Part shown: positions 25,121-46,641 of the stretch, piece by piece | Numbering within the stretch: the stretch's first letter is position 1 | How the letters are laid out: every line of letters begins with the position of its first letter | Assembly: GCA_964291675.2 (NCBI GenBank) | Contig: OZ219866.1 | Coordinates: 2,976,001-3,040,000, forward strand | Length of the DNA: 64,000 nt | Origin: Alphaproteobacteria bacterium | Lineage (GTDB): Bacteria > Pseudomonadota > Alphaproteobacteria > MPNO01 | Direction of reading: 5' to 3' | The notes under the pieces: model-generated | Seen by the model: the letters and a program-made list of their open reading frames with translations, nothing else | What the model was told of the DNA's origin: nothing | Database searches by the model: none | Position numbers and translations under genes: made by a program

Positions 25121-25345
25121 CTACCGCAGCACCGTCTCCAGCACCGCGCCGAGCAGGCCGAGGGCGACCGAAGCCATCATGCCGTAGGCGATCAGCATCA
25201 CCGGGCGGAAGCTCTCCTTGGTGACGAACTCCTCCAGCCGGTCGTGGATCGCCCTGGTGCGCTCGTCGAGCCGGGCGAGCAGCACCCGGTCCTCGCCGTT
25301 GAACGGCCGGGCGGATGCGGTGTAGCGCTCGTCGGTGCGGTCCAT
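25121..25345 (-). CDS. Small coiled-coil + TM protein (holin/XhlA-like)
   Basis: LLARLDERT..FVTKESFRPV then one TM; last gene of the virion operon. Confidence 0.55.
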   Translation of the reverse strand: MDRTDERYTASARPFNGEDRVLLARLDERTRAIHDRLEEFVTKESFRPVMLIAYGMMASVALGLLGAVLETVLR

Positions 25346-25348
25346 GGC

Positions 25349-25735
25349 TCAGCCCCGGCGCCGGCGATACGCGGCGAGCCGGCCGGCGCGCGCCGCCTCG
25401 ACGAAGCGCTCGATCGCCGCCAGGGCCGAGCGCGGCGGACCGCCCGCGGCGGCGGGCGGCGGGAGCGCCGGGAACGGCACCCGGGGCGGCGGGGAGGCGG
25501 GCATCGGCGGCGCCGGCCGGCCGGGCCGCGGCATCGCCGCGCCGCCCGCCGGCAGCCGCGGCGGCGCCGGCATCGGCGTCCGCCCCTTCACCGGCTCGGC
25601 TCCGGCGGTCAGGAAATCGGCGAGCAGGCGGAGCGCGACGGCCCGGTAGTCCGGGTCCCCGGGCGGGTGGGTCATGCGCGGCGTGCGGGCGGACGCGCTG
25701 CCGCGCCGGAAGGTGGATATCGGGTGCTTCTCCAT
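25349..25735 (-). CDS. Proline-rich hypothetical protein (possibly a decayed ejection protein)
   Basis: GGAG RBS + ATG; operon position; low complexity. Confidence 0.4.
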   Translation of the reverse strand: MEKHPISTFRRGSASARTPRMTHPPGDPDYRAVALRLLADFLTAGAEPVKGRTPMPAPPRLPAGGAAMPRPGRPAPPMPASPPPRVPFPALPPPAAAGGPPRSALAAIERFVEAARAGRLAAYRRRRG

Positions 25736-25755
25736 CTCGGTTCTCCGGTTCGGGT

Positions 25756-26865
25756 TCAGGCGGCCGCGTCGAGGCGCTCGGCCAGCGCGTCGACCCGGGC
25801 GGCGAGCCCCTTGACCGCCGACATGGTGGCGCCGATGGCGTCCATCGCGTCGATGGTCCGCCCGTCGCCGGCGAACGCGGCGGCGAAGTCCTCGGCGTAG
25901 GGGCCGATATGCGGCGTCGGGTCGCCGCGGTAGCGCCAGCGCTCGACGTCGAGGCCGCGCAGCCTGGCGAGGCTGTCCGCATGGTCCGCCGGGCGGTTGT
26001 CCGTCTTCACCGCCCGGCTGGAGGCGAACAGCGCCGCGGTGCCGAGCGCCTGGCCGAGCCCCTGGCGGAACTGGTTCCACTGCCCGAGCCGGGCGTTGTA
26101 GCGGTTGAGCCCGGCCCGCTGCGACAGCGCGTGGGCGCCGAGCACGTCGAGCGGCGCCGCCGGGGCGAAGCCGGGCAGGCCGACCGGCGCCACCTGCTGG
26201 CCGCCGAGCAGGGCGGCGAGCTCGTTGAACTGCTGCTGGCGCAGCGCCGCGCGCTCGGCGAAGCCCTGCCGGCGGGCGGCGGAGCGCCGGGCGAAGGCGC
26301 GGTCCGCCTCGGCCCCGCCCTCCGCCACCGCCGCCCAGGCCGCATCCTGGCGGGCGCGGTTGCCGGCATCGAGCAGGCGGTCGAACTCCGCGCCGCCGGC
26401 GCTGCCCTCGGCGATCGGCAGGCCGCGATTGGCGAGGCTCTGGCGCAGCCGGCGCTCCTGGCGCTCGATCTCCGGGTCGAGCAGGCCGAGCGCCCGCTGG
26501 TAGGAAGCCCGCTCGGCGCGGCCGCGCAGCGCCTCCAGCCCGGCGGCGTCGAACGCGGGCGGCAGGCCGGCGGTATCCAGCCCGCCGAATCGCAGCCCCC
26601 GCGCCCGGTCCAGCGCCTGGCCGGCGAGCGTCCGGCCGATCGCCTCCTGGCGGGCGCGGAAGTCCTGCTGGTAGGGCGTCTCGACCACCCGCGTCGCATG
26701 GCGCGACGCGCCGGGGTCGAAGACGAACTGCCCGTCATCGCCCACCGTTCCGTAGAGCAGATTGCCCTGCGGGGTGAACTGGCTGATCCGGTTGGCCGCG
26801 GCCTGGGCCTCGATCAGCTTCGCCGGGTCGGGTACGGGGGGCGGTTTGGGGGGTCGTTTTCCCAT
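25756..26865 (-). CDS. Phage ejection/DNA-pilot-like protein with C-terminal peptidase S74-like (intramolecular chaperone) domain
   Basis: MGKRPPKPPPVPDP..NRISQFTPQGNL.Y N-terminus; Q/A-rich helices; SSRAVK..VERWRY..HIGPYAEDF tail. Confidence 0.7.
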   Translation of the reverse strand: MGKRPPKPPPVPDPAKLIEAQAAANRISQFTPQGNLLYGTVGDDGQFVFDPGASRHATRVVETPYQQDFRARQEAIGRTLAGQALDRARGLRFGGLDTAGLPPAFDAAGLEALRGRAERASYQRALGLLDPEIERQERRLRQSLANRGLPIAEGSAGGAEFDRLLDAGNRARQDAAWAAVAEGGAEADRAFARRSAARRQGFAERAALRQQQFNELAALLGGQQVAPVGLPGFAPAAPLDVLGAHALSQRAGLNRYNARLGQWNQFRQGLGQALGTAALFASSRAVKTDNRPADHADSLARLRGLDVERWRYRGDPTPHIGPYAEDFAAAFAGDGRTIDAMDAIGATMSAVKGLAARVDALAERLDAAA

Positions 26866-27286
26866 GTCGGTCTCCTGTCCAGCGGCATTCGCGCCGCAGC
26901 ATCGAATAGATTGCGGCGTCCTCGCCGGTCGGCCAGGCTTCGCGGGCCATGCCCTCGTAGCGGAAGCCCAGCCGTTCGACGAAGCGCCTGGCGGTCCGGT
27001 TGCCGCGCCTGATCGTGGCCTGCACCCGGCGCGCGCCGAGCTGCTCGAACGGGTAGCGGAACGCGGCCTCGAGCACCCAGCGCCGGCACCAGCGCGGCGA
27101 GGTGCTCGCGATCGACATCTCCAGCGCGCCGGGCCGGTCGCGCCAGCCGCTATAGACGATGCCGGCGACCAGGCTTCCGTCCTCGACCACGCCGATCGCC
27201 GCGGCCGGGCCGAAATCCTCGATCCCCAGCCGGCGGCCGACCCAGCGGGCGATCTCCGCGTCGCTTCCCAGCGCGAGGCTCGGCAT
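26735..27286 (-). CDS. Phage-associated GNAT N-acetyltransferase
   Basis: AIGVVEDGSLVAGIVY, FRYPFEQLG, N..ARRFVERLGFRYEG, YSMLRRECRW; runs 130 bp into the next gene. Confidence 0.8.
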   Translation of the reverse strand: MPSLALGSDAEIARWVGRRLGIEDFGPAAAIGVVEDGSLVAGIVYSGWRDRPGALEMSIASTSPRWCRRWVLEAAFRYPFEQLGARRVQATIRRGNRTARRFVERLGFRYEGMAREAWPTGEDAAIYSMLRRECRWTGDRHGKTTPQTAPRTRPGEADRGPGRGQPDQPVHPAGQSALRNGGR

Positions 27287-27382
27287 GGCGTGTTTCCCGT
27301 GTTGGTTCGATTTTCGACGCGCGCCGCCCGCGCGGCCTCTCCGCTTGCGAGGCGGACGGCAGGGAGGCGCGCACTCCCCGCC

Positions 27383-27660
27383 CCGTCATGGCCGGACTTG
27401 ATCCGGCCACCCATGCGCGGACTTGATCCGCGCAACCACTGGCGCCACCGGTACAACGCCCCGTCGGAAGGAGCGGCGGCGGCAGTGGGTGGCCGGATCA
27501 AGTCCGGCCATGGGTGCCCGGATCAAGTCCGGGCATGACGAGGGCAGCATGACGAGGGGCGTGTTGGCGCTCCCCCACCACGTCATGGCCGGACTTGTTC
27601 CGGCCATCCAGGCGGCCTCTCCGCTTGCGAGGCGGCGGGTCGGAGGGCCGTATCGAAAAC
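27383..27660. repeat. REP family 1 composite cluster inside virion operon
   Basis: Same ~110-bp composite as 15983-16110. Confidence 0.85.
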
Positions 27661-27664: not shown

Positions 27665-28609
27665 CTACGTCTTGACGATCCAGTTCAGCACCACGGTCGG
27701 CTGCACGTTGTTGTGCGCCCGGCCGCTGCCCACGCGGCCGGTGTAGCCGCGGATGGCGTGGCTGTGCGATCCGCCCGATGCGGTGCTCTGCGTGCCGGAC
27801 GCGTTGTTGTTGCCCCAGCTCAGCCTGGAGTAGTTGCCGCTGGTGTGGAACGCGCCGGTGTTTATCGAGTGGTTGTGGCTGCCGGCGGACGCCGTGGCGA
27901 GGGTGCCCCGCGCGTGCGAATGCGACGGCATCTGGGACGAGCCGAGGGTATGCGTCTCCGCGCCGCCGGCCGCGCCGAGCGTGTCGCCGTCGACGCCGCC
28001 CGACTGGCCGGTCAGCCGGTTCGCCGCGCTGCCGCCCATGTCGTCCTTGCCGGCGACGGCGCGGCCGCGCAGATCGGGCAGGTTGAAGCTGGTCGAGCCG
28101 TCGCCCGCGCCGTGGGTCGTGCCGATCGCCGCGAACAGGGCGGGGTAATCGTCGCGCGACACCGCCTGGCCGTAGCACAGCAGCCAGCCGGCCGGCGCGG
28201 CGGCGCCGGCGAAGGGCGCCAGCATCCCGGCCGGCAGGGCCGACGGGGCCGACAGCCCGGCGACGGTGGCGCCGTCCTCGACGGCGAGCGAGGCGCCGCT
28301 CTCCAGCCTCAGCGTCGAGCCCGACAGAATTTCCAGCGCGTCCGCGCGGAAGCGGAAATCCACCGCGCCGGCGAGCTTCACGTCGATCCGGTCGTCCTCG
28401 GCGGCGGCGATCGAGGTGTCGCCGTCGCCGTCGAGCACCAGCTCGTGCCCGGCGAGCGAGACCCGGTCGGTGGCGAGCAGGAGCGCGCTCGGCGTGCCCT
28501 CGCCGTCCTCGACCGGGCGCGGCACGCCGTCGATCCCGCGGTTCGCGTTGGAGACCTGCAGCAGGTCCTTGTAGGTGTCCTTGGGCTTCTTGCCCGTCAA
28601 TGCGGTCAT
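27665..28609 (-). CDS. Tail fibre protein with tail-collar domain
   Basis: PAGMLAPFAG..APAGWLLCYGQAVSR..LFAAIGTTHGAGDGSTSFNLPDLRGR; HSH repeats; HNNVQPTVVLNWIVKT. Confidence 0.88.
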   Translation of the reverse strand: MTALTGKKPKDTYKDLLQVSNANRGIDGVPRPVEDGEGTPSALLLATDRVSLAGHELVLDGDGDTSIAAAEDDRIDVKLAGAVDFRFRADALEILSGSTLRLESGASLAVEDGATVAGLSAPSALPAGMLAPFAGAAAPAGWLLCYGQAVSRDDYPALFAAIGTTHGAGDGSTSFNLPDLRGRAVAGKDDMGGSAANRLTGQSGGVDGDTLGAAGGAETHTLGSSQMPSHSHARGTLATASAGSHNHSINTGAFHTSGNYSRLSWGNNNASGTQSTASGGSHSHAIRGYTGRVGSGRAHNNVQPTVVLNWIVKT

Positions 28610-30162
28610 CAGATCAGTCCTCGCCCGGTTTCGAGCTGAAAGGTCAGCGTTTCCCATTCGAGTTCGTCGCTGGTCTCGGAGGTGAGCCTCGCGCCCAGCG
28701 CGTAGCCGAGCCCGTCGGCGGCGCGCCATTCGGCGATCGTCGTCTGCTCGCCGCCCTGCCAGACCAGGTCGCCCCAGATCTCCCAGACCGTATCGGCGCC
28801 CTCCCAGCCGTCGCCCGCCGGGCCGAAGCCGGTGACCACGGCCGGCGCGCCGGCGCTGCGGAAATCGGCCAGCGCGGCGAGCCCGATCCGCGCCTCCGCC
28901 TTGCCGCGCAGCACCGGGCGCAGGCAGATGCAGCGCTTCATCAGGTCGCGCCGGCCGAAGGCGTTGAACGCGGTCTGCGCATCGCCGGCGATGGTCCTGC
29001 CCGCGTCGGTGGTGCCGCCGATCCGGTTGACCGTCCCCGAGGCGGCGCCGAAATGGGCGTTCTCGTCCCACACCGCCCAGGCATGGGCGTCGATCCCGGT
29101 CCAGCGCGCCCAGGCGCCGGTCCGCGTGTCCATCACGTATTGCTCGAACCGGCCGCCGCCGAGCGGGGCGTTGACGATGGCCCGCCCGGCCCGCGCATGC
29201 ACCACGACCTGCCAGCCGGCGTTGGGCCCGTGGCGCCGCACCGCCTCGACCAGGGTCGGGCGGATCTTGTCGGACACCACCCCGCTGGGGGTGAGCGAGC
29301 CCTCGCTGACCAGCCGGGCGATCGAGATCAGCCCTTCCGAGGTCAGCACCACCAGATCGGAGCCGCGCCGGGCCACGCCGCGCACGTCGACCGGGGCGCC
29401 GGCGCGGAACACGCCGACCAGGCGCCAGTCGGAGCCCGGGTCGTCGCCGCGATAGACCACGATGTCGCCGGACGACATGCAGAACACCGCGAGGTCCTCG
29501 CCGATGCCGCCGCCGCCCCAGACGTCTGACCCGCCCTCGACGTTCCACGAGCCCATGCAGACCAGGTTGCCGCCGAACTGGCCGACCCGGGACAGCGGGA
29601 AGCGCGCCAGGCTTCCGCCCAGCGCGTCGGTCTCCGAGTACCAGAAATCCTGGCTGTCGCGCTCGAAGAAATAGGTGCGCGAGCGGTGGGTCATGATGCC
29701 GAGCAGCCGTTGCGGCGCCAGCCCGTCGCCCGAGACCGTCATCGCCGCGACGGCGCGGCCGTCGAAGATCTGCGGCGCGTCGGTGCCGTTGACCAGACCC
29801 ATGCGGCCGTTGAAGCTGACGCCCTGCCAGCGGTTCTCCGCGAAACCGGTCGCCAGCCGGGCCGGCGCGCCGGAGATCTCGTAGATGCCGCCATCGGCCG
29901 CCGCGACGGTCTTGCGCACGCTGCCGGCGTGGAACGCGGCCAGGGTCTCGACCGGCCCCGAAGCGAAGCCCGACACCAGCGGCTGGAAGCCCTCGCGCAC
30001 CGCGAGCGCGGCGATCCCCGGGTTCCAGTTGTCCAGCCTCACCGCGTCGGTGGGCGGCATCAGGTTGAGCGAATCGCGGGTGTTCAGCCCGCCCACCGGG
30101 GCCGGCACGGTGACCGTCATGGTGGCGGCGCGGCGCCGCCTGGCGCGCCGTCGCCTCAGCAT
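28609..30162 (-). CDS. Tail nozzle / DNA stabilization protein (P22 gp10 / tubular B-like)
   Basis: PAPVGGLNTRDSL N-terminus, beta-propeller-like composition, operon position. Confidence 0.7.
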   Translation of the reverse strand: MLRRRRARRRRAATMTVTVPAPVGGLNTRDSLNLMPPTDAVRLDNWNPGIAALAVREGFQPLVSGFASGPVETLAAFHAGSVRKTVAAADGGIYEISGAPARLATGFAENRWQGVSFNGRMGLVNGTDAPQIFDGRAVAAMTVSGDGLAPQRLLGIMTHRSRTYFFERDSQDFWYSETDALGGSLARFPLSRVGQFGGNLVCMGSWNVEGGSDVWGGGGIGEDLAVFCMSSGDIVVYRGDDPGSDWRLVGVFRAGAPVDVRGVARRGSDLVVLTSEGLISIARLVSEGSLTPSGVVSDKIRPTLVEAVRRHGPNAGWQVVVHARAGRAIVNAPLGGGRFEQYVMDTRTGAWARWTGIDAHAWAVWDENAHFGAASGTVNRIGGTTDAGRTIAGDAQTAFNAFGRRDLMKRCICLRPVLRGKAEARIGLAALADFRSAGAPAVVTGFGPAGDGWEGADTVWEIWGDLVWQGGEQTTIAEWRAADGLGYALGARLTSETSDELEWETLTFQLETGRGLI

Positions 30163-30872
30163 CGGCCGGACCCCGGGAAGCCGCCATCCGGCAGGGCGGC
30201 GGCGAGCGCGGCGGGCGCGGCGCCGTCCAGCCGCAGCGTGGGCCGCCCGCCGTCGCGCGCGATCGCGCGGGCGAGCACCGAGAGGTACTCGTTGAGGTCG
30301 TCGTCATAGGCCAGCCCCACGGCCTTCTTGAAACGCCATTTCACCCCCATGGCGGCGATCTCCTCGGACAGGGCGAAGCGGTCGTCGTCGGCCTCCCAGC
30401 CGCGCCGCCTGGCGCCCGAGGCGGCGATCACGATGTCCGCCGTGACGTATTCGAAGGCAAGCTCGCCGCCCGCCCGGGCGGGCGCCGGGTAGAGGTGGAA
30501 GCCGCCGCCGTGGATGCGGAAGCAGCGACCCACGCCCCCGGCTCCGCCGCGCGCGGCCAGCAGCGCCTGCCATTGCGGGCCGGACAGCGGGCCGTCGAGC
30601 CGCCGCCCGGCGGTCCGGTCCCAGGCGGTGCCGTCGACGATATGGCCGAAATCCGCGGGCAGGCCGTCCGGCTGCGCGGTCGCGGCGGCGGCGGCGAAGA
30701 CGTGCTCGCGCACCAGCGCGGTCCACTCCGCGGCCCCGGACATCGAGAAGATCTCCTGGCGCGCGGCGGCGAGCAGGCGGATCGCGGCGGTCTCCGGGTT
30801 GCCGGTGACCGCGGCGGGCGGCGCCACCCCGGCCTCGGCGGCGGCTTCGCGGCAGATATCGAGCAGGCTCAT
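30156..30872 (-). CDS. Head-tail adaptor / tail tubular protein A-like
   Basis: MSLLDICREAA, LPADF, WDRT, GPLS..W..L, GVKWRFKKAVGLAY. Confidence 0.7.
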   Translation of the reverse strand: MSLLDICREAAAEAGVAPPAAVTGNPETAAIRLLAAARQEIFSMSGAAEWTALVREHVFAAAAATAQPDGLPADFGHIVDGTAWDRTAGRRLDGPLSGPQWQALLAARGGAGGVGRCFRIHGGGFHLYPAPARAGGELAFEYVTADIVIAASGARRRGWEADDDRFALSEEIAAMGVKWRFKKAVGLAYDDDLNEYLSVLARAIARDGGRPTLRLDGAAPAALAAALPDGGFPGSGRC

Positions 30873-31447
30873 CGGCGGCGCTCCCGCCTTCCCTGCCCGG
30901 CCTGGCGCAGCCGCGCGTTGTCGCCCTCCAGCCGCGCGACCTCGCGCTTGAGGCGGGCGATCTCGGCGCGCAGCGCCGTCTCGGTCTCGGTCTGCGGCTG
31001 CAGGAACTGGCGCGCGCGCTCGGCGAGGGCGGCGGCGGTCTCGCCGATCCGCTCGCGCAGCGCCTCGTCGGCGCCGGCCACCTGCTCGACGGTGAACACT
31101 TCCAGCGCCTTGAGCTCGGCCACCCCCGCCACGGTGAGATAGGGCCAGTGCTCGATCGGCGTGCCGGACGGGCGCTCGCGCCTGGCCTCGAAGGCGGCCC
31201 AGCGGCCGGGCCAGCGCGCGCGGTCGGCATCCGAGGCGCGGCGGTCGACGACGCTGTTGCGGTCGCCCGGCACCAGCACGCGGACATAGGCGATCTCGTC
31301 GAACACCGGCCGGCCGCGCTCCTCGCTGCGCGCCGGGTTCCGCACCGCGCGCATGTAGAAATGCGGGATGCAGTCGTCGCGCCCGCCATTCTGCTGCTCG
31401 GCGGCGAAATTCTCCCAGTAGCCGGAATCGTCGGGAACCGGTTGCAT
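30869..31447 (-). CDS. Conserved phage protein
   Basis: SEERGRPVF..YVRVLVPGD, GTPIEHWP, ELKALEVFTVEQ pattern seen in podophage head-tail regions. Confidence 0.7.
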   Translation of the reverse strand: MQPVPDDSGYWENFAAEQQNGGRDDCIPHFYMRAVRNPARSEERGRPVFDEIAYVRVLVPGDRNSVVDRRASDADRARWPGRWAAFEARRERPSGTPIEHWPYLTVAGVAELKALEVFTVEQVAGADEALRERIGETAAALAERARQFLQPQTETETALRAEIARLKREVARLEGDNARLRQAGQGRRERRR

Positions 31448-31484: not shown

Positions 31485-31940
31485 CCGTCATGCCCGGCTC
31501 CCGGAACGAGTCCGGCGGCCGGGCATCTCGCTCCACCGGGCGCGGTGCCGGCGGCGCCCATGGGTGCCCGCTTCCCCCGCCCCCCTCCCCCCCGCCCCCT
31601 CGTCATGGCCGGACTTGATCCGGCCACCCATGCGCGGACTTGATCCGCGCAACCACTGGCGCCACCGGTACAACGCCCCGTCGGGAGGGGCGGCGGCGCC
31701 CTCCCTTCCGTCATGCCCGGCCCCCGGAACGAGTCCGGGGGCCGGGCATCTCCCTCCACCGGGCGCAGTGCCGGCGGCAGGCCCGGTGGATGGCCGGAAC
31801 GAGTCCGGCCATGACGATGGGGGCGGGCAGGGCGCGTCCTTCGATACGCCGCTTCGCGGCTACTCAGGATGAGGGAAAGTCTCTTGGTCCAACAAAAGAC
31901 CCTCATCCCGAGTAGGCCCCGCAGGGGCCGTATCGAGGGA
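31485..31940. repeat. REP family 1 cluster followed by REP family 2 pair
   Basis: Family 2: CTTCGATACG..CTACTCAGGATGAGGG ... CCCTCATCCCGAGTAG..CGTATCGAGG (31838-31940). Confidence 0.85.
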
Positions 31941-35176: not shown

Positions 35177-35191
35177 GCCTTGCAGCCTTCT

Positions 35192-38425: not shown

Positions 38426-38479
38426 GGCTTTCCTTTCGGCTCGCATGGCGGTCCTTCGATACGTGCCCTGCCGCCCCCA

Positions 38480-38590: not shown

Positions 38591-38616
38591 AGGGAGCGGG
38601 GCGGCGCGCCCCGCGG

Positions 38617-39933
38617 TCAGATCAGCCCGTGCCCGGCGCGGCGGCGCTCGGCGAGGTGGCGGCGCCATTGGCCCTCGAAGCTGTCCGCGCGCGGCGCCGG
38701 CGGGGCGAAGCGGTCGCCGATCCCCATCGCCAGGTAGCGGAACGCGTCCGCGCCGTGGCTGAAGCGGTCGTGCACCGGCCGGTCGCCGAGCCCGCCGGTG
38801 GCGGGGTCGATTTCCGCCCGGTAGCGGCGCAGGCACTCGATGCCGGCCTCGGCGCGCTCGGCGTCGAACCAGCAGCGCGGCAGGATCGCGCGCACCGCGT
38901 TGATGCCGTCCTCGATGCGGTGGCGCGGCACGATGGCGAACCGGATGCCGAGCCGCCGCGCCTGCTCCTCGCGCGTCCGCCCGGTGCCGAGCTCGCGGGC
39001 CAGCGCGTCGGGCGGCGCGTAGTGGCGGCCATAGACATAGCCGCGCTCGGCGGCGCGTTCCTGCAGCAGCCCGGCATAGTGGTCGAGCCCCTCCCCCTCC
39101 GCCTCGTAGTAGTCGAGCAGGTGGATCTCGGGCCCGGCGAGCTGGGCGAACCAGATCGCCGTCGGGTCGCCGATGCCGAGATCCCAGGCGGTGTCGACCG
39201 GCAGCGCCGGGTCGTGCGGCACCGCGCGGATACGCCCCGAGCGCCGGGCGTCGGCCATCGCCCGGCCGTAATAGGCGCCCTTGACCGCCGCCTCGAAGGA
39301 GCACTCGAACTCCTGGGCGTACTCCTCGCGCGTCATGTCGCGGCGCGCGGCGGCGAGCTCCTGCGCCGGCAGCACGCCACTCGCCGATGCCGGGAACAGC
39401 GCCGCGTACCAGGTCGCATCGGCGCGGGCCGCGCGGTACATGCGCCAGAACGCGTCATGCCCCTTGGGCGTGCCGATGAAGATCGCCCAGCCCTCGCGGT
39501 CGGCGAGCGCCGGGCGGATCACCTCGCCCCACATGTCGGGGTTCATCTGCGCGTACTCGTCGAGCACCGCGCCGTCGAGATAGATGCCGCGCAGCGAATC
39601 CGGGTTGTCGGCGCCGTAGAGCTGGATGCGCGCGCCGTTGGGGAGGTCGACCCGGAGCTCGGTCTCGCTCACCTTGCGGCCCGGCACCGCGGACGTGTAG
39701 TGCTTGAGATAGTCCCACGCGACCCGCTTGGCCTGGCGGTAATAGGGCGCGATATAGGCAAACCGCGGGCGCGGGCGCCGCGCGCGGATGGCGTGGTCGA
39801 TCAGCTCGTTGACGCAGAGCACCGTCTTGCCGAAGCGGCGGTGGCAGACCAGCACGCTGAACCGGGCGAGGCTGCGGTGGATGTCGGCCTGCAGCGGGCG
39901 CGACCGGTAGCCGGTGCTAATTTTCTCGGTCAC
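38617..39933 (-). CDS. terL: Terminase large subunit
   Basis: CHRRFGKT (Walker A), LRGIYLDGAVLDEYA (Walker B), IGTPKG, AWDLGIGD, SHGADAFRY. Confidence 0.95.
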   Translation of the reverse strand: MTEKISTGYRSRPLQADIHRSLARFSVLVCHRRFGKTVLCVNELIDHAIRARRPRPRFAYIAPYYRQAKRVAWDYLKHYTSAVPGRKVSETELRVDLPNGARIQLYGADNPDSLRGIYLDGAVLDEYAQMNPDMWGEVIRPALADREGWAIFIGTPKGHDAFWRMYRAARADATWYAALFPASASGVLPAQELAAARRDMTREEYAQEFECSFEAAVKGAYYGRAMADARRSGRIRAVPHDPALPVDTAWDLGIGDPTAIWFAQLAGPEIHLLDYYEAEGEGLDHYAGLLQERAAERGYVYGRHYAPPDALARELGTGRTREEQARRLGIRFAIVPRHRIEDGINAVRAILPRCWFDAERAEAGIECLRRYRAEIDPATGGLGDRPVHDRFSHGADAFRYLAMGIGDRFAPPAPRADSFEGQWRRHLAERRRAGHGLI

Positions 39934-40246: not shown

Positions 40247-40280
40247 GATCGCGTCCTCGTTCGGTTGTCGGGATGTCGGG

Positions 40281-40425
40281 CCACGAAAAAGGGCGCCGGT
40301 CTCTCCGGCGCCCCATTTCGCGACTGTGGCAAATCTACCCCAAAACGCGTCCCATGTCAAGCGAAAAATACGTTATAGGGAAATTTTTTCGGAACCCCTT
40401 GGAATCCCGGGGGTTTCTTGCCGGT
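40281..40425 (-). promoter_or_regulatory. Promoter + intrinsic terminator unit R1
   Basis: -35 TTGACA (40360-40355), 17 bp, -10 TAGATT (40337-40332), then GGGCGCCGG-AGAGA-CCGGCGCCC-TTTTT. Confidence 0.88.
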
Positions 40426-40469
40426 GCCAATTCGGGCGGCGGAGCGGGCGGTTGTCCCTCGATACGCCC

Positions 40470-40756
40470 CGTCATGCCCGGACTCGTTGCACCGCTGCCC
40501 GGTTCAGCCTTCGATGCGGGCCGAACCCGGCCCTCTTCGCCCCGCCCCTCGACGCCCGGATCGAGTCCGGACATGACGGGAGGCGGAGTGATGGCGATGG
40601 GGCGGGCCGCGCCCGGCTCTCCCTGCTCCTCCTCCGCCACCACCCCGTCATGGCCGGACTCGATCCGGCCATCCACACGGCCTCTCCGCCCGCATGACGG
40701 TCCGACGGGAGGGTGGCAGCGCTCATGGATGCCCGGATCGAGTCCGGGCATGACGG
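40470..40756. repeat. REP family 1 cluster between R1 and R2
   Basis: Two CGTC-type pairs. Confidence 0.82.
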
Positions 40757-40784
40757 GGGAGGAGGCCGGTTGCCCCCCGTCTCC

Positions 40785-40928
40785 GCCACGAAAAAGGGCG
40801 CCGGTCTCTCCGGCGCCCCATTTCGCGACTGTGGCAAATCTACCCCAAAACGCGTCCCGTGTCAAGAAAAAATACGTTAAAGGGAAAATTTTTGCCAAAC
40901 CCCCTGGAATCCCGGGGGTTTCTTGCCG
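40785..40928 (-). promoter_or_regulatory. Promoter + terminator unit R2
   Basis: TTGACA 40865-40860, 17 bp, TAGATT 40842-40837, same hairpin and T tract. Confidence 0.88.
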
Positions 40929-41012
40929 CCTCCGAAGCGCCACCGGACCGACGCCGGAGCAGCGAACGGCGATTACCCGGGAGGCGTCCGGAAGCGGTGG
41001 CGGAACCGTGAT

Positions 41013-41663
41013 CTACGAAAACAGGCGTTCTAGTTCTTCGAGCACCTGCAAGTGTCGTTTCGTCGTCAATGGCGCTGAACAGAAATAGCGTTCAGCCTCC
41101 ACGGACGTCCCCTCGCGACGTTCAATGATGAATTTCGGGATTGCCTCGGATTTTGATGCGAATTCAATTGTGAGCGCGCTGAACGCTGCTGCACTCACGT
41201 CCCGGTGTTCGTTCACGCCGGATAAAATGACATTTGCAATCTTGTCGTACTTGGCGAGCATATTCGCTGCCGGTTTCTCGAATTCGACAACGACCTCGCT
41301 CGAGTAGAGCGACTTCTTATGGATCCGCCTGCATCCGTAATGCTGGACCAGCCAGTCTATCAGGTCCGCGAAAAATGCTTCCGCATGCCCTGTCTCGTAT
41401 GCTCGAACGACTACTCCGTCATTGTGGATAGACAAGCGGTGGATCGTGGCTTCTCCCAACTCTGTCTGGAAGAACCCCAACTCGTACACAAGCCCGTTTC
41501 TTTCCAGTTCGGTGTGGGACGACAGCCTGGGCAAGGTGCCGAAATTGTATCGTTGGCCGATGGCAATGAGAATTTGGCGTTCATTTAGCCCGTCCATGGG
41601 GGTGAACGACTCAAGAGGGAAAAGCGATACCAAGGTTCCGGACGAGAAAGCTATGATTTTCAC
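41013..41663 (-). CDS. Hypothetical protein (cargo, lower GC)
   Basis: 216-aa globular-looking ORF, GTGA overlap with the upstream HTH gene. Confidence 0.7.
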   Translation of the reverse strand: MKIIAFSSGTLVSLFPLESFTPMDGLNERQILIAIGQRYNFGTLPRLSSHTELERNGLVYELGFFQTELGEATIHRLSIHNDGVVVRAYETGHAEAFFADLIDWLVQHYGCRRIHKKSLYSSEVVVEFEKPAANMLAKYDKIANVILSGVNEHRDVSAAAFSALTIEFASKSEAIPKFIIERREGTSVEAERYFCSAPLTTKRHLQVLEELERLFS

Positions 41664-42166
41664 GGAGCTGACCTTGCGATACTCGGCAACCTTGCCGCAT
41701 CGGCCTGCGACGGTTTAGGCGGTATTTCCGCCAACGCACTGTTGGGCCGAATCCGCCGATCCCTCACTCCTTCTTCGTGCTTCACCGCTCTTGAGCGCTG
41801 CGCGGGGGCGAGGGATCGGACCAGATCCTCAGATCGGTAATTCCTCGCGGCGCGCTGCAAGTACGGCTCGGATCGAGGCCGCAACTCCTCGCGACAGATA
41901 CCGACCAGCAGCTCGCTGACGGTATCCAGCGTCCAGTTGCCCGGCGATCCGAGCAGCCTGGTGACGCGAGCCGGCTCGAGCCCGAGGCGCCGCGCGAGCT
42001 TTGCCTTGGTCAACCCGTCCCGTTCGGCCGCCTCGTGGAACCGCCGCAGAACGTAGTCGTAGAAGCTGTTCCTCACCCGCTCGTTGAGATAGCCGAGCGC
42101 GTAGTCCGAGAGCGGCTCGTCGCCCGCGATCTCAGATTTCACTGGAATTTGTCGAAACGTAGTCAC
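41660..42166 (-). CDS. XRE-family HTH protein (antitoxin-like)
   Basis: GLTKAKLARRLGLEPARVTRLLGSPGNWTLDTVSELL. Confidence 0.8.
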   Translation of the reverse strand: MTTFRQIPVKSEIAGDEPLSDYALGYLNERVRNSFYDYVLRRFHEAAERDGLTKAKLARRLGLEPARVTRLLGSPGNWTLDTVSELLVGICREELRPRSEPYLQRAARNYRSEDLVRSLAPAQRSRAVKHEEGVRDRRIRPNSALAEIPPKPSQADAARLPSIARSAP

Positions 42167-42674
42167 GGCAGCTTCCTCCTGTCAGCGGCACCGCGCCGGG
42201 AAGGGCGGCATTCCAGCGCTCGTTCGTCTCGATGAGGGCCAGCTCGTACTCCAGCGAATCCCGCTTGCCGAGCGGCCTCCGGCCGCCGAACCGAACCGAC
42301 CTGGGCTCCCACGAGAGGGCAACGAACGTGTCGGCGCAGGGAAACCTTCCAAACACGCGCAAGCCGGGGTTCGGGTCGCGGCTCCTGATTTCCCAGGTTC
42401 CGTCCGCGGGCGGATCCATGAGCGCCAGGAATGCGCTTCCGTGCTCGAACGGCGTCATGCTCAGCGTCACGTGCTCGCCTTTGACAAACGATTCCAGGTC
42501 TCCCTGAAGCCGGCCGACCCGCCGCCCCCAAGCCTCGACCCGCTCGGAAATGTCATCGGCGAGCCGAGGATGGAGAAGCACGGAACGGACCGCCTCGTCA
42601 CTGTCGAACTCCGGCACGAATGCGCGAAGGCGACCCGTTACGATCGCAGCCTCGATACTCTCTGCTATTGACAT
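42132..42674 (-). CDS. RelE/Gp49-like toxin candidate
   Basis: GTWEIRS..PGLRVFGRF..DTFVAL; upstream of HTH gene. Confidence 0.6.
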   Translation of the reverse strand: MSIAESIEAAIVTGRLRAFVPEFDSDEAVRSVLLHPRLADDISERVEAWGRRVGRLQGDLESFVKGEHVTLSMTPFEHGSAFLALMDPPADGTWEIRSRDPNPGLRVFGRFPCADTFVALSWEPRSVRFGGRRPLGKRDSLEYELALIETNERWNAALPGAVPLTGGSCRDYVSTNSSEI

Positions 42675-42784
42675 TTAAGTCAACTGGATCGCGCTTGGCC
42701 TGGACCGCCGAACAAGGTAGCACGATGGATGAGCGGACGCCGAAGCCCGCCTCGTCCGCCCGGGCCCCCCCGTTCCCCCGCCAG

Positions 42785-42928
42785 CAAAAAGGGCGCCGGT
42801 CCCTCCGGCGCCCCATTTGTCGACTGTGACAAACCTACCCCAAAACGCGTCCCATGTCAAGCGAAAAATGCGTTAAAGGGAAATTTTTTGCGTAACCCCC
42901 TGGAATTCCGGGGGTTTCTTGCCGGTGC
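42785..42928 (-). promoter_or_regulatory. Promoter + terminator unit R3
   Basis: TTGACA 42860-42855, 17 bp, TAGGTT 42837-42832, hairpin GGGCGCCGG-AGGGA-CCGGCGCCC-TTTTT. Confidence 0.86.
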
Positions 42929-43058
42929 CGACTCGGGCTGCGGGGCGGGCGACTGTCCCTCGATACGCCCCCATCGGCATTTCGACCAAGCGGAGCGAGC
43001 CCCGGCACTGACAAATCCGGCGACAGGGCAGGAAGATATCCACAGATCGAACGGCAAG

Positions 43059-43304
43059 CTAGCCAAACAGCTTGATGAGCGTGATTGCGAGCCCGATCCC
43101 GATAACGGAGGCGGCAACGACGCCGCCGAGCACCCATGCCTTGGTCGCCATGGTGTTTTCGATACCCCTGATCCGTTCGTCAATCCGGGCTAGCTGGATT
43201 TCCAATGCCCGCAAGCGAGCGTCGATGCCATCTCCGTTCGACCCGCCGGCATGCACCAAGGATGCCGATGGAGTCGCCGTGGGATGTGGACGGACCGACG
43301 CCAT
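43059..43304 (-). CDS. Small coiled-coil + C-terminal TM protein (cargo)
   Basis: IDARLRALE..LARIDERIRGIE..MATKAW then TM; TGATG coupling. Confidence 0.7.
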   Translation of the reverse strand: MASVRPHPTATPSASLVHAGGSNGDGIDARLRALEIQLARIDERIRGIENTMATKAWVLGGVVAASVIGIGLAITLIKLFG

Positions 43305-43570
43305 CACGCCCTGACCTTGGAGAGCCATTCCCAAAGGTCGTTTCGATTGAATCCGAAATAGGCAGAGATCTCGAGAACGATACCGAGACGACTGTCGGCG
43401 TCCGTGGCAACCCCGACGGTCCTGGCCACGTCCGATGTCAGGACGATCCCTTCGGGTGCGACGAATGCCACCCTCTCGTCCAGAATGAAGTGCCTGCCGG
43501 GCCAGTTCTGCTTTATCGCTTCCCATGCGCCGGCGTCCGGCTGATTGAGATAGACGGCGAAGGTACTCAT
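43304..43570 (-). CDS. Small hypothetical protein (cargo)
   Basis: 88 aa MSTFAVYL..YFGFNRNDLWEWL; alpha/beta pattern. Confidence 0.7.
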   Translation of the reverse strand: MSTFAVYLNQPDAGAWEAIKQNWPGRHFILDERVAFVAPEGIVLTSDVARTVGVATDADSRLGIVLEISAYFGFNRNDLWEWLSKVRA

Positions 43571-43710
43571 CCGGCGACCCTTTCCCGTCGGCGCGTAAAC
43601 CCTAGATAGGGGCCGTTTCGCGGTCAACAACCCTGGCTGGCACCGGAGGTCGAAGCCGCCTCGATGTGTACGGTGCGCGGTGCGCGCCTTCGTCTCCGCT
43701 CCCCGCCCGG

Positions 43711-43851
43711 CAAAAAGGGCGCCGGTCTCTCCGGCGCCCCATTTGTCGACTGTGACAAATCTACCCCAAAACGCGTCCCATGTCAAGCAAAAAATGCGTT
43801 AAAGGGAAATTTTTTGCGGAACCCCCTGGAATCCCGGGCGTTTCTTGCCGG
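43711..43851 (-). promoter_or_regulatory. Promoter + terminator unit R4
   Basis: TTGACA 43786-43781, 17 bp, TAGATT 43763-43758, same hairpin. Confidence 0.88.
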
Positions 43852-43924
43852 CTGCGATTGGGGACGTTCCGTCGCTATCCAGGGTGAGGGCTCTATCGAG
43901 CGGCGGCCCGATCGAGGAGGGGGC

Positions 43925-44395
43925 CTACGCGCTCGTCCGGACTTGGGGGCGAGGCGGGTCCGGGAGGGCGATGGATACCGACCCCGTCATCCCGTTGTAG
44001 AGCATCGTCACATGGCGCAGGAGCGCGCGGCCGATGAGTGCGCCGTGCGGCTGCCCGCCCGCATGGAGGTGCACGCCCGCGAACCTGCCGGAGACGGCCA
44101 GGTCCAGGATGGGGATGAATATCTGGGCCAGATGGACATTGACCTCTCCGGCCCCGTGCACCCCGGATACTTGCACACGATCGATGGCCGGCAAGCCGAC
44201 CGCCGCCGCGATGGAAGAGTCTATGCAGCTTTCCCCTGCCCCCGTATCGACCAGAGCACGGTGCTCGGCCTGCGGCAGGTTCGGGTTCCCGCCGGCACGG
44301 TAGTCGGGATCGAAGCCGATCCGCACCCGGAGCGTGGGGCCGAACCTGACCAGGGCATAGGGTTGCCCTGCGAACCCGCACTCAGCTTGCGGCAT
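43925..44395 (-). CDS. Retropepsin-like (clan AA) aspartyl protease (cargo)
   Basis: ALVDTGA catalytic motif, ALIGRALL. Confidence 0.85.
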   Translation of the reverse strand: MPQAECGFAGQPYALVRFGPTLRVRIGFDPDYRAGGNPNLPQAEHRALVDTGAGESCIDSSIAAAVGLPAIDRVQVSGVHGAGEVNVHLAQIFIPILDLAVSGRFAGVHLHAGGQPHGALIGRALLRHVTMLYNGMTGSVSIALPDPPRPQVRTSA

Positions 44396-44651
44396 CCACC
44401 GCAACCGGGTTGTAGAGCGCCGAGGCGGGTAGCGTGATCGGCGGAGCGCCGATCTCCCTGATCAAGTACGGCCCTGCCCCGAACCGCTCGACCGCCTGCG
44501 CGGCGGCGTCCTCGAACGTGTCGTAGAGGCCCGCCAGCTCCCCGCCATGCACGATCGCCCACTTGCCCAGGTGATCCGTCTCGAGCGCGTTGCGCATGCC
44601 TTCATAGGCAGCGATCTCCCTGGTCAGCGCAGGTGCCTCCGCATCCGCCAT
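44382..44651 (-). CDS. DUF5678-like small protein (cargo, partner of the protease)
   Basis: EIAAYE..L..DHLGKWAIVHGGELAGLYDTFEDA..A..RFG.GPYLIREIG. Confidence 0.72.
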   Translation of the reverse strand: MADAEAPALTREIAAYEGMRNALETDHLGKWAIVHGGELAGLYDTFEDAAAQAVERFGAGPYLIREIGAPPITLPASALYNPVAVDAAS

Positions 44652-44763
44652 ACGAGCCCTCCTTCCGGGACTGCGGGGAAGACCGCAACCCCTTGGCACG
44701 GGAAAACAATAGGATATCGCGGGGCACAAGCATATCCCGCCGTGAAGCCGACCGGGCACCCGC

Positions 44764-44850
44764 CCACGAAAAAAGGCGCCGGTCCCTCCGGCGCCCCATT
44801 TCTCGACTATGAAAAATATAGTCGAAAACGCGTCCCGTGTCAAGCAAAAA
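44764..44850 (-). promoter_or_regulatory. Promoter + terminator unit R5 (short, abuts regulator stop codon)
   Basis: TTGACA 44843-44838, 17 bp, TATATT 44820-44815, hairpin GGCGCCGG-AGGGA-CCGGCGCC-TTTTTT. Confidence 0.86.
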
Positions 44851-45438
44851 TTATCCGAAGTCGTCGTTCTCCTGCTCCTCCTCGTCCGTCCGCTCTGCCG
44901 GGTCCATGCGCACGGCCGAGGAATTGCGGGTCTCGGGGTACGGCGCGTCGACCCAGCCGGCAAGCTCGGCGTAGCGGTGCAGCGCGGCCCGGACGTGCTC
45001 GACCGCCGAGCCGTGGCGCATGCGGTACCAGCCCTCGACCTGGCGCAGCCCGTGATTGTCGATCACCACGTCGAGGATGAGCTGGAGCCGCGTGGTGCGC
45101 ACCGCGCCGGCGGCGACGGTGACCGCCATCTCGCGCGCCCAGGGCCGGTAGCGCAGCCGCCAGGCCAGCTCCTCCGCCGGGGTGAGCCGGTCGATGGGGT
45201 CGGTGAACATGGCGCGGCGCCGGCGCTGGGCGATGGGCGCGGCCGGGCGCGCGGCGGGGAACAACCCGCGGCCGAACGCCTCCCAGACCCGGCGGATCTC
45301 GAGCGCCGCGCGGAGCTGGCCGGCGCAGAGCCGGCCGTCGCGCCCCAGCCGGGCGACGATGTCGCGGCGCAGCTTGCGCAGCGTCTCGGGGGTCGGCCCG
45401 GCATCCCGGGGTGCGGCGGCTTCGGTTTCGGGTTCCAT
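44851..45438 (-). CDS. DUF6456-like protein, candidate Q/GafZ-type antiterminator
   Basis: IVARLGRDGRL..GQLRAA; C-terminal sigma4-like LILDVVIDNHGLRQVE..R.G.A..VRAALHRYA; lies right before a promoter-terminator. Confidence 0.6.
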   Translation of the reverse strand: MEPETEAAAPRDAGPTPETLRKLRRDIVARLGRDGRLCAGQLRAALEIRRVWEAFGRGLFPAARPAAPIAQRRRRAMFTDPIDRLTPAEELAWRLRYRPWAREMAVTVAAGAVRTTRLQLILDVVIDNHGLRQVEGWYRMRHGSAVEHVRAALHRYAELAGWVDAPYPETRNSSAVRMDPAERTDEEEQENDDFG

Positions 45439-45460
45439 GCTGTGCTCCTTCTGCGAATTG

Positions 45461-45907
45461 TCAGCCGGCGCGGCGGCGGGCCGGCGGGCGGACGCTCGGC
45501 CCGGCCGCGAAGGCGCCCGGCAGCGGGTCGATCCCGGGATAGCGGATGCGGGTGCCGGCCGCCCGGGCGGCGCGGATCAGGTCGGGGATCGACGCCGGCG
45601 CGCCGTCGAGCGCGTAGCCGGCGACGGTCGCGGTGACCCTCCCGCCGAGCGTCTCCAGCGCCCGGCGCAGCGGCGGCGAGGGCAGCGGCGGCGCCTCGCC
45701 CTCGCCGTCGTCCTCCGGCCAGGCCATATCCGGCGCCGGCGCCGGCGGGGCGGCGCAGCGCCATTCGTCCAGCGCCGCTTCGAGCGCCGCGGCGGGGCGC
45801 GCGAAGGTCCATTCGAGGAAGCCGAGCTCGATGCCGCTCGCCGCCAGCAGGAGGAGACGCCGGCGCTCCCCCGGGGAGAACGGAAGGCGCTTGCGATCTT
45901 CTTCCAT
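45461..45907 (-). CDS. Hypothetical protein, possible DNA-binding co-regulator
   Basis: AGGAG RBS; N-terminal FSPGERRRLLLLAASG helix pattern; first gene of the divergent operon. Confidence 0.55.
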   Translation of the reverse strand: MEEDRKRLPFSPGERRRLLLLAASGIELGFLEWTFARPAAALEAALDEWRCAAPPAPAPDMAWPEDDGEGEAPPLPSPPLRRALETLGGRVTATVAGYALDGAPASIPDLIRAARAAGTRIRYPGIDPLPGAFAAGPSVRPPARRRAG

Positions 45908-46008
45908 ATGCGCTATCTCCTTCTCATATCTGACGCCTGTAGTTTGCATGAAAAGAAAACTCTGTCAAGTAGCAATACGCCGAAGGATGCAATTTCTGGG
46001 TGAGGACC
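45908..46008. promoter_or_regulatory. Divergent promoter/operator region
   Basis: AT-rich; minus-strand TTGACA (45968-45963); inverted TTGCAT (45944-45949) / ATGCAA (45987-45992). Confidence 0.55.
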
Positions 46009-46641
46009 ATGGCCGAAAGACCTGACGGAATCGCGATCTCCAACCGTATCCGGCAATGGCGCAAGCGGCGCGGGCTGACGCTCCAGGTGCTGGCCGGGCG
46101 GCTCGGCACCTCGGCCGGCCATCTGCACAAATGGGAGACCGGCAAGGTGTCGATCACGCTCGACCGGCTGGGCGAGGTGGCCACCGCGCTGGAGTGCAAC
46201 GTGCTCGACCTGGTCGAGGGGCTGGCCAACGTGCCGGTGGTCGGCCGGGTCGGCGCGGGCTCCGAGGTGCATGCCGTCGACGACCACGCGATGGGCCAGG
46301 GAACCCGCCAAGTGCGCTGCCCCAACGGGCTCGACGCCCAGCAGACGGTGGCGGTCGAGGTGGTCGGCGATTCGATGCTGCCGATCGAGGAGGGCTGGCT
46401 GCTGTTCTACACCCGCGACTACCAGGGGGTGCCGACGGAATGCCTCGGCAAGCTGTGCGTGGTGCAGCTCGCCGAGGACGGGCCGCGCTACGTCAAGCGG
46501 CTCAAGCCGGGGCGGCAGAACGGGCTGTTCAACCTGTACAGCACCAACGCCCGCGAGATGGAGGACATGGCGCTCGCCTGGGCCGCGCCGGTGCTGGACG
46601 CGCGCCCGCCCGTGCCCGGCGAGAGCGGCGCCCGGGGCTGA
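46009..46641 (+). CDS. CI/LexA-like repressor (XRE HTH + S24 peptidase)
   Basis: NRIRQWRKRRGLTL..LA..LGTS..WETG; VGRVGAG cleavage site, GDSM Ser, YVKR Lys. Confidence 0.92.
   Translation: MAERPDGIAISNRIRQWRKRRGLTLQVLAGRLGTSAGHLHKWETGKVSITLDRLGEVATALECNVLDLVEGLANVPVVGRVGAGSEVHAVDDHAMGQGTRQVRCPNGLDAQQTVAVEVVGDSMLPIEEGWLLFYTRDYQGVPTECLGKLCVVQLAEDGPRYVKRLKPGRQNGLFNLYSTNAREMEDMALAWAAPVLDARPPVPGESGARG

Follow-up and report, generated by a model that had tools for sequence, protein, structure and literature searches.

A genus-wide podovirus-type head-tail operon in Defluviicoccus as a candidate host-owned DNA-carrying particle

The presence in a bacterial chromosome of genes to package DNA, build a head and mount a short tail raises the question of whom they serve: a phage, the decaying trace of one, or the host itself. 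We have addressed this question for one stretch of DNA, hereafter the window, which comprises 64,000 nucleotides (positions 2,976,001 to 3,040,000 of contig OZ219866.1, assembly GCA_964291675.2) of a metagenome-assembled genome (MAG) of Defluviicoccus. This host genome (G000) has 4.8 Mb and 69.4% G+C in two contigs, and is 93.7% complete. On the minus strand of the window, at about 24.8-45.9 kb, PHROG and Pfam family scans delimit an operon of podovirus late genes of the Mx8/Brucella-Pr clade, which encodes the terminase subunits (terS, terL), the portal, a three-transmembrane (3TM) holin, scaffold, capsid, adaptor, nozzle, fibres and a GNAT acetyltransferase. A previous reading of the same DNA made from its letters alone (the sequence-only reading) had proposed a long-resident particle cluster under selection, either a short-tailed gene transfer agent (GTA) or another co-opted particle, rather than a recent prophage. 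The cluster is vertically inherited, sits at one locus and has diverged together with its host, and purifying selection acts on its genes for packaging, head, tail and holin. On balance, we favour the view that a temperate podovirus of the Mx8/Pr clade left here an old remnant, now immobile, which Defluviicoccus has kept as a host-controlled particle operon. As a head-tail operon kept by selection in most of the genus it is a promising candidate for a host-owned, DNA-carrying particle of a new kind, and among the possible functions that of a GTA, plausible from the gene content, is our leading reading.

Inheritance and selection of the operon

The distribution of the cluster was analysed in 12 species of the genus, G000 and eleven others (G001 to G011), all of them MAGs and two of them (G002 and G011) only partly assembled. 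The portal gene occurs in nine of the eleven other species at 80-88% identity, the capsid gene in eight, and the second gene of the operon (e44851, see below) in ten. Outside the genus, the portal was detected in one of eight other genomes of the family and in none of the 41 genomes taken from four further families of the same order. In this regard, the sequence-only reading had named synteny and phylogenetic congruence among relatives as the check on its own proposal, and the same locus is indeed found in five relatives with trees that match that of rpoB. In G001, G004, G005, G006 and G008 the operon lies between the same host flanks, with an amidase-signature gene on the repressor side and luciferase-like monooxygenase and hydrolase genes on the fibre side, and rpoB itself lies some 88-125 kb from the cluster in G000, G001, G004, G005 and G008. 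The maximum-likelihood tree of the head module (terL, portal, holin, scaffold and capsid; 9 taxa) has a topology identical to the rpoB tree, and the trees of the tail genes (8 taxa) and of the regulators (9 taxa) agree with it at all well-supported nodes.

Synonymous divergence in the cluster follows that of host genes pair by pair. Between G006 and G007, the youngest pair, dS is 0.14 for the head, 0.09 for the tail and 0.12 for the regulators, next to 0.09 for the flanks and 0.095 for rpoB; between G004 and G008 the corresponding values are 0.20, 0.21, 0.23, 0.24 and 0.21, and between G000 and G003 the head reaches 0.378 and rpoB 0.366. At the same time, amino acid changes have been restrained. 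The capsid has the lowest median pairwise dN/dS (0.16), followed by the holin (0.24) and by portal, terL and nozzle (each about 0.3); adaptor, scaffold, GNAT and fibre range over 0.35-0.49, with the fibre at 0.49, and terS reaches 0.61, next to host control genes at 0.11-0.40. Taken by modules, omega stays at 0.23-0.51, the youngest pair included, where the head genes give 0.26 (0.21-0.33), and the bootstrap upper bounds never exceed 0.64. A dN/dS near 1, which the sequence-only reading had named as a refutation, was not obtained. In seven of the 12 species the core open reading frames (ORFs) are intact and sit at the same locus. Stops lie only at the natural gene ends in G000, G001, G002, G004, G005, G007 and G008, G003 being the exception in the alignments; the nozzle gene of G006 has lost a loop in frame and is otherwise whole. 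The locus of G005 and G008 spans only about 17 kb and is almost devoid of an early region. Altogether, synteny, congruent trees, dN/dS and intact ORFs favour a cluster long resident in its host and under selection over a recent prophage.

No genes that would make the element mobile were detected. In PHROG, Pfam and neighbourhood scans, neither the cluster nor its surroundings matched any family of integrase, replication, recombination or tape-measure genes, and NCBIfam and PADLOC scans of the cluster proteins gave no replication or integration module either. No att pair was found, the only repeats common to both borders being copies of repetitive extragenic palindromic (REP) elements, for example at 24329-24392 and 46963-46995. 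The hallmarks of a functional temperate prophage (integrase, att repeats and replication module) were therefore not found, and family and repeat scans bear out what had been read from the letters. A host-like composition had also been claimed, and this holds for the cluster, with a G+C content of 0.728 in a genome of 0.694, outside positions 40361-44850, which fall to 0.627. The remark that host REPs have accumulated in many spacers proved right: genome-wide repeats of this type occupy 7 of the 14 spacers tested, with a peak match depth of 77-311 and 104 to 691 non-self blastn matches per REP-bearing spacer, and the core ORFs remain open. The family found in the spacers 27375-27635, 31592-31840, 38473-38613, 40543-40779 and others is of the palindrome type CGTCATGGCCGGA...TCCGGCCATG, a hairpin with a CGTC tag.

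Repressor, leading regulators and promoter-terminator units

How would a host control such an operon? A divergent repressor, two leading regulators, five promoter-terminator units and a cassette of DUF4258 and helix-turn-helix (HTH) genes had all escaped the sequence-only reading. Divergent from the operon, at 46000-46641 on the plus strand, lies the gene of a CI/LexA-type repressor with HTH_3 (4.8e-10) and Peptidase_S24 (3e-7; 30.6 bits for a cut-off of 23.3) domains and a match to phrog_4 (2.1e-20). The protein is 86-95% identical to those of relatives, and its Ala-Gly site (VGAGSE), the serine of GDSM and the lysine of VKR are invariant in nine species, so that both the cleavage site and the Ser/Lys dyad typical of self-cleaving S24 repressors (LexA/CI) are in place; cleavage itself is predicted from these residues. 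Between repressor and operon, the divergent control region of about 90 bp (45908-45999) shows a mean column identity of 74% in an alignment of seven species and contains an invariant TTGACA on the minus strand (45966-45961) that faces the operon.

The first two genes of the operon encode the putative regulators, and both are read from the minus strand. The first, e45461 (45461-45907), encodes 148 aa with an HTH-like N-terminal part, as seen in the alignment of its orthologues, which share a mean identity of 70% and show a dN/dS of 0.45. It has no Pfam, PHROG, NCBIfam or PADLOC match, Atlas gave no named family at 0.9 or above, and the comparison with PDB chains returned only two rows at chance level (E 0.13 and 0.6). 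The second, e44851 (44851-45438), encodes 195 aa and seems to adopt a fold like that of sigma-factor region 4, as indicated by comparison of its AF2 model (pLDDT 77.8). Sigma factors or their region 4 made up 11 of the 12 best VIA-align rows for this model (Z 5.7-6.8), the C-terminal domain being the most similar part, and the antiterminator Q21 (6jnx_P) was matched weakly as well (Z 5.3 over 107 residues). None of its 78 homologues is named. By sequence it had no match in the PDB, Foldseek gave none at E <= 0.001, and a Pfam scan of nine orthologues at E <= 1 returned matches at chance level only; PADLOC and NCBIfam assigned neither the two regulators nor the small early ORFs.

According to the excerpted text of two articles (PMC9638019, PMC9765227), the GTA activator GafA is annotated as DUF6456. 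When e44851 was aligned with ten DUF6456 domains by hhalign, it reached a probability of 65% (E 6e-5, 110 of 134 columns), the e45461 control remaining at 0.5%. Atlas placed e44851 (0.93-0.94) next to mostly viral clusters, some of which carry DUF6456; those matched at 0.93 have it in 10% of their members. No match to DUF6456 (PF20057) above the cut-off was found. The sequence-only reading had noted that RcGTA-like agents are switched on by GafA or GafYZ; a gene with a weak likeness to GafA and GafZ, e44851, lies within the cluster itself. Taken together, model and profile comparisons make e44851 a candidate activator or antiterminator. The repressor and the two regulators were found in none of 82 loci that were compared (related viral or MAG loci together with Mx8 and the Bradyrhizobium phage ppBjS10J-1), and the same is true of the holin.

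A recurrent unit seems to link these regulators with the particle genes. It consists of a promoter (TTGACA-17-TA(G/T)ATT) with a conserved spacer between its two hexamers, and of a 10-bp G+C hairpin followed by a run of T, the hairpin beginning 18 nt past the -10 hexamer and folding at -24 to -31 kcal/mol (z -4.1 to -6.4). A promoter scan found six promoter-like sites for 0.9 ± 1.0 expected. Five units occur in the window, all on the minus strand, one ahead of terS and one ahead of each cassette of a low-GC stretch. The first (44753-44920; TTGACA-17-TATATT; hairpin -24.4 kcal/mol, z -4.1) directly follows e44851, three more lie within the low-GC stretch (43696-43863, 42770-42937 and 40775-40942), and the fifth (40270-40437; hairpin -31.3 kcal/mol, z -6.35) directly precedes terS, whose first 25 or so codons are the unit itself. 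In nine of the ten genomes that have terS a unit stands directly upstream of it, and comparison of the loci indicates this position as the ancestral site. The low-GC stretch (40438-44752, G+C 0.63), which carries small unknown genes between the units, is an insertion: its genes are common almost only to G001 and G010 among the relatives compared, with one also in G004, and in G005 and G008 e44851 stands only about 0.5-1 kb from terS. In G004 the operon is split at two points by an insertion of about 37 kb between holin and scaffold and another of about 10 kb separating the second regulator from terS. Since cassettes occupy the same two intergenic positions in the window, these appear to be insertion hot spots.

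Ten more copies of the unit were found on both contigs of G000 (C1 and C2), for example at C1:543707, C2:3354910 and C2:2585821, which makes 15 in the genome. Three of these ten precede paralogous genes whose N-terminal domain matches phrog_27742, one of which also encodes an HTH_3 at the C-terminal end. Another copy, on the other contig, lies 77 nt upstream of the gene of a 161-aa Amidase_2 protein (PF01510, 4.8e-13) that matches phrog_822, 'amidase, lysis' (2.7e-36), and scores only 23.9 bits on the AmpD model, far under its cut-off of 143. This amidase is present in nine of the eleven other species, and the unit precedes it in nine of the ten genomes that have the gene. Phage_lysozyme gave no match in the genome; neither did Glyco_hydro_108, for which the positive control matched nowhere either. 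The search of the rest of the genome for lysis and ejection genes that the sequence-only reading had called for was thus answered in part, with a phage-type amidase that carries the unit and no homologues of ejection proteins. The scattered units could represent a dispersed regulon, a family of small-RNA genes or a mobile promoter cassette.

Particle genes and their neighbourhood

Most of the genes that had been named from the letters could be recognised, namely terL, portal, holin, scaffold, capsid, adaptor, nozzle, collar fibre and GNAT. The terS gene is assigned by position and HTH motif, the 'cement' gene reduces to a weak match to Mx8 p49, and the supposed ejection protein is fibre-like. 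All of them lie on the minus strand. The probable small terminase gene (39917 to about 40285) overlaps terL from its upstream side and has a conserved HTH-like core, with an uncertain start and no family match in PHROG or Pfam scans. The terL gene (38617-39933; phrog_2 3.1e-40, Terminase_6N 2.5e-8) is single-copy in the genome and 77-84% identical in nine relatives. Then follows the portal gene (36644 to about 38440; phrog_12082 4.6e-170), whose product shares 34-36% identity with those of Mx8, Mx9 and ppBjS10J-1. The 3TM holin (35816-36229), the only copy in the genome, belongs to the GTA-holin family GTA_holin_3TM, with 52.9 bits on PF11351 for a curated cut-off of 24.8 and a match to phrog_3427 (4.8e-28). 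The scaffold gene (33563-34582) was recognised by its position and by tblastn to Mx8 p47 (3.7e-13) and is 58-72% identical in eight relatives, and the major capsid gene (32572-33540; phrog_9953 1.7e-98, SU10_MCP 26.3 bits) is 91-96% identical in eight. An Mx8 p49-like virion protein (31941-32417; phrog_29386 8.7e-5, tblastn to Mx8 p49 6.5e-6) was found in G000 and G001 only among the relatives compared. Inside an ORF of this region, ARAGORN proposed a tRNA-Gly at 31960-32046, which was discarded for that location and for its lack of Rfam support.

The neck and tail genes continue the same order, starting with an Mx8 p50-like head or neck protein (30869-31400; phrog_20268 2.5e-17, tblastn to Mx8 p50 1.4e-23) and the adaptor or tail tubular protein A (30156-30872; PF24175 SU10_adaptor 33.1 bits for a cut-off of 27, phrog_6013 8.3e-38). 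The nozzle, or tail tubular protein B (28609-30162; 517 aa), was recognised by its predicted fold: its sequence matched no PDB chain, and the AF2 model (pLDDT 86.5) matched the Pa223 tail in a Foldseek search of the PDB (E 2.4e-21, TM 0.70) as well as P22 gp10, Sf6 gp8, SU10 and T7 gp12. A PHROG label of 'amidase (lysis)' for this protein was rejected on the strength of that fold. The tail collar fibre (27665-28600; PF07484 Collar 2e-24, phrog_8763 1.3e-41) is 56-72% identical in relatives. The Mx8 p53-like GNAT acetyltransferase (26735-27286; phrog_4470 4.1e-41, with a tblastn match to Mx8 p53) reaches 23.9 bits on Pfam Acetyltransf_3, under the cut-off of 25.4. The Mx8 p54-like virion protein (25756-26740; phrog_6121 7.2e-24) ends in a Peptidase_S74 chaperone domain (PF13884 5.3e-6) and is, for this reason, predicted to be a distal fibre or needle, not an ejection protein. 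Its gene is the most variable of the cluster, patchy, replaced or highly divergent in several relatives.

At the distal border, a small gene of 74 aa and a weak PIN-like gene (24793-25345, minus strand; PIN 20.1 bits, under the cut-off of 23.6) are kept in the genus at 77-91% identity in relatives and have no homologue in any of the 82 loci. Between holin and scaffold lies the pair of DUF4258 and HTH genes (34709-35539, minus strand), a toxin-antitoxin-like cassette by family scans that only some relatives carry. A direct repeat of 62 nt, 90% identical, brackets it at 34517-34578 and 35639-35700 and looks like the footprint of its entry; through this repeat, the cassette has a copy of the scaffold gene's ribosome-binding site and start on each side. 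Beyond the distal end of the cluster, two transposase genes of the IS110 family (20525-21844 and 22789-24174, plus strand) occur in G000 alone among the genomes compared. On the repressor side, an AAA-ATPase and a DUF4276 gene (49321-51178, plus strand) form a candidate HEC-01 defence pair (PADLOC HEC-01A 2e-152, HEC-01B 1.7e-79) that is missing at the equivalent site in all relatives compared. Paralogous ABC-transporter sets (permease, ATPase, permease) stand on either side, at 12038-14727 and 51227-54395; the latter also has an OpuAC-type binding protein, and the former is common only to G001 and G010.

Possible functions and comparison with known systems

A host-controlled particle operon of this kind might work as follows. 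The CI/LexA-type repressor, with its intact self-cleavage site, would hold the divergent promoter shut until an SOS-type signal, upon which the HTH protein e45461 and the sigma-region-4-like e44851, weakly similar to GafA and GafZ, would be made. Both could then act at the promoter-terminator unit, allowing the polymerase to read through from terS to the fibres, past the REP hairpins. The same unit would drive the remote phage-type amidase, which may lyse the cell together with the 3TM holin. Since the locus is not replicated, the terminase would fill the heads with chromosomal DNA, and the released short-tailed particles might act like a GTA.

Several observations weigh against this proposal. 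To begin with, production, contents and delivery of the particles are predicted from genes alone, and all the genomes are MAGs. The sequence-only reading had held that a patchy or inactivated cluster would speak against it, and here the picture is mixed, with an intact operon in seven of the 12 species, a decayed one in G010 and G003, and none detected in G009. In G010, a close relative with a complete genome, the cluster has decayed at the same site, with the genes from the p50-like one through terS lost and the repressor, both regulators and tail genes retained. In G003 the element is scattered over three places, with the regulators in one, a nozzle gene that has a frameshift in another and what is left of the head in the third; its portal gene has an internal stop and terL is truncated. 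In the fragmented assembly of G009, which is sister to G000 by rpoB, no cluster gene was found; its left-flank contig ends after 6195 bases, and the absence could thus be an assembly gap. The species with decayed or absent clusters (G010, G003 and G009), together with G000, include the closest relatives. The dN/dS values were obtained by NG86, which is only approximate at a genome GC3 (G+C at third codon positions) above 0.9. Regarding control, all fold matches of e44851 have Z below 8 and its DUF6456 likeness is weak, hmmscan having matched just one of 27 members of its family (E 0.072), which is not the protein of the window. The other outside units precede UbiD, Rieske oxygenase or CysN-like genes or no obvious gene, so that the unit is not reserved for the genes of the particle; in G009 it is kept ahead of the amidase although e44851 was not found there. 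Several small ORFs at 40.4-44.8 kb, which have no assigned function, might conceivably hide a replication function.

Two further objections concern the delivery and the size of the cargo. In the excerpted text of PMC10386132, the internal virion proteins of the Mx8/Pr clade occupy the syntenic late positions downstream of the tail genes, and the late proteins of Mx8 and ppBjS10J-1 past p54 are likely to be such internal virion (ejection) proteins. This part of the module is missing: Mx8 p55-p57 and five large late proteins of ppBjS10J-1 gave no tblastn match at E <= 1e-3 anywhere in G000. When 1231 ORFs from the 82 loci were searched against the genome, 434 matches fell in the cluster and only 8, scattered, outside it, by which the idea of a second structural locus was abandoned. 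As no homologue of these late proteins was found in the whole genome, delivery of DNA is doubtful. Furthermore, the lengths of capsid and scaffold equal those of phages of 44-50 kb. Unlike in classical GTAs, nothing points to a capsid that could not hold its own locus of 17-22 kb, and to judge from these lengths the head may be larger than the locus.

These points give room to the explanation that survives best after a GTA, though we consider it unlikely: that the locus is domesticated all the same and its particles do not deliver DNA, acting instead as PBSX-like killer or defective particles, in an SOS-triggered altruistic lysis, or as capsids and tails lent to other mobile elements. The lack of ejection homologues within and outside the cluster speaks for it. 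It also agrees with fast-evolving fibres and a distal fibre swapped between species, as expected of surface binding, and with an SOS-type repressor control, as in pyocins and PBSX. Purifying selection on terS, terL and portal speaks against it, because it implies that DNA packaging matters, and we know of no case of killing by podovirus-like defective particles.

Somewhat less probable still is an ordinary defective prophage in slow decay and without present function, in which the signs of selection would be a legacy or would come from a few useful genes. The losses described for G010, G003 and G009 fit such a course, as do the two insertions that split the G004 copy and the invasion of the locus by IS110, toxin-antitoxin-like cassettes and REPs. 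Decay, however, should hardly have left at least 12 genes open in seven of the 12 species while synonymous sites diverged as far as those of rpoB, nor the low omega of the head genes in the youngest pair, nor a capsid conserved above nine residues in ten across the genus. Finally, a temperate phage that is still active might insert itself at one and the same site in every species through unrecognised integration and replication functions; the CI-type repressor, the small early ORFs and the temperate habit of the related Mx8 (excerpt of PMC10386132) could be invoked for it. This reading is close to refuted by the agreement of the trees with rpoB, by dS values that match those of host genes, by the missing integrase and att pair, by the reduced locus of G005 and G008, by REPs in the spacers, and by IMG/VR, which has no near-identical free viral contig, its capsid matches being only two short contigs at 92-94% identity, the next at 65% and the rest at or below 60%.

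With an old podovirus remnant kept by its host as the preferred origin, the locus can be placed among known systems. By portal, the phages ppBjS10J-1 and Myxococcus Mx8 and Mx9 are closest, together with the Brucella Pr/Tb group; none of the 51 matching records reaches 60% identity. The order terL, portal, scaffold, capsid, p49, p50, tubeA, tubeB, GNAT and p54 is that of Mx8 (p44-p54) and ppBjS10J-1, and the proteins of these phages and of the Brucella Pr/Tb group are 25-50% identical to those of Defluviicoccus. The syntenic terL, portal, scaffold, capsid, tubeA and tubeB that characterise the Mx8/Pr-clade module, as far as the excerpt of PMC10386132 describes it, are all there. Mx8-type phages (38-50 kb) carry in addition integrase, replication and recombination genes and the large late proteins (Mx8 p55-p57), which the cluster lacks.

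In its switch, the locus resembles PBSX and the R and F pyocins with their PrtR, which are chromosomal, immobile and selected, and respond through a repressor of the S24 type. Pyocins, however, have no heads or packaging genes and PBSX derives from a myovirus, whereas here the full podovirus head, motor and short tail are kept; the loss of head and packaging genes that defines a tailocin has not occurred, as selection maintains terL, portal, scaffold and capsid. The layout of the unit recalls that of lambda, where the regulator gene Q is followed by a strong promoter (PR') and an immediate terminator (tR') ahead of the lysis and morphogenesis genes. In contrast to lambda, e44851 has no sequence homology to Q, and the unit is found 15 times in the genome, also before non-phage genes. 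A like arrangement, with a small regulator gene beside a promoter and an immediate terminator, is described for GafZ in Caulobacter (PMC11150451). The Desulfovibrio agent Dd1 is said to have a short-tailed morphology. Our literature search, conducted mostly at the level of abstracts, found no description of a podovirus-derived GTA or of the Defluviicoccus element.

The number of GTA lineages with an established genetic basis is three in the excerpted text of PMC9662315. From the genes alone, a host that encodes tailed-virus-like packaging, head and tail functions, one of the features by which the same excerpt defines GTAs and viriforms, is found here, and so are vertical transmission and the lack of a replication or integration module. 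Further features in that definition are particles whose cargo is mainly random host DNA with no more than a portion of their own locus, induction in a small subpopulation, and the delivery of DNA to recipients. Tentatively, and with less confidence than we place in domestication itself, the locus might be a fourth independently domesticated GTA, and among those of known genetic basis the first to descend from a short-tailed phage. It would be released by SOS-dependent cleavage of the repressor and driven by a GafY/GafZ-like pair that reads through the unit at both the operon and the remote endolysin, a control either converged on that of RcGTA and CcGTA or related to it by deep common ancestry. 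If the locus does work as a GTA, the domestication of phages into DNA-carrying particles would not be bound to one tail type, the logic of activator and antiterminator would be recurrent, and the dominant glycogen accumulators of wastewater may exchange DNA by particles.

A close parallel is offered by RcGTA and CcGTA, which consist of HK97-type siphovirus genes instead of the Mx8/Pr-clade podovirus genes of Defluviicoccus. G000 has no HK97-type siphovirus set with GTA_TIM, the defining trait of an RcGTA-like (type I) cluster: GTA_TIM (PF13547) was not found in this genome at its 93.7% completeness, and the Caulobacter control matched. Unlike these agents, the Defluviicoccus locus is known from genes alone, carries its regulators and a CI/LexA-type repressor in cis, shows no sign of a reduced capsid and yielded no ejection proteins. 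What both have in common is a vertical inheritance without replication and integration genes, a compact core head-tail operon of about 17 kb, a PF11351 holin with the lysis enzyme encoded elsewhere, and two small activator genes, which here are putative, one of them with a weak likeness to DUF6456. In Caulobacter, GafY and GafZ act through the bypass of a terminator and also control accessory genes elsewhere in the genome, as stated in the excerpt of PMC11150451, and a terminator near the cluster promoter that has to be bypassed (excerpts of PMC11150451 and PMC9662315) is a likeness that the Defluviicoccus operon shares with RcGTA and CcGTA.

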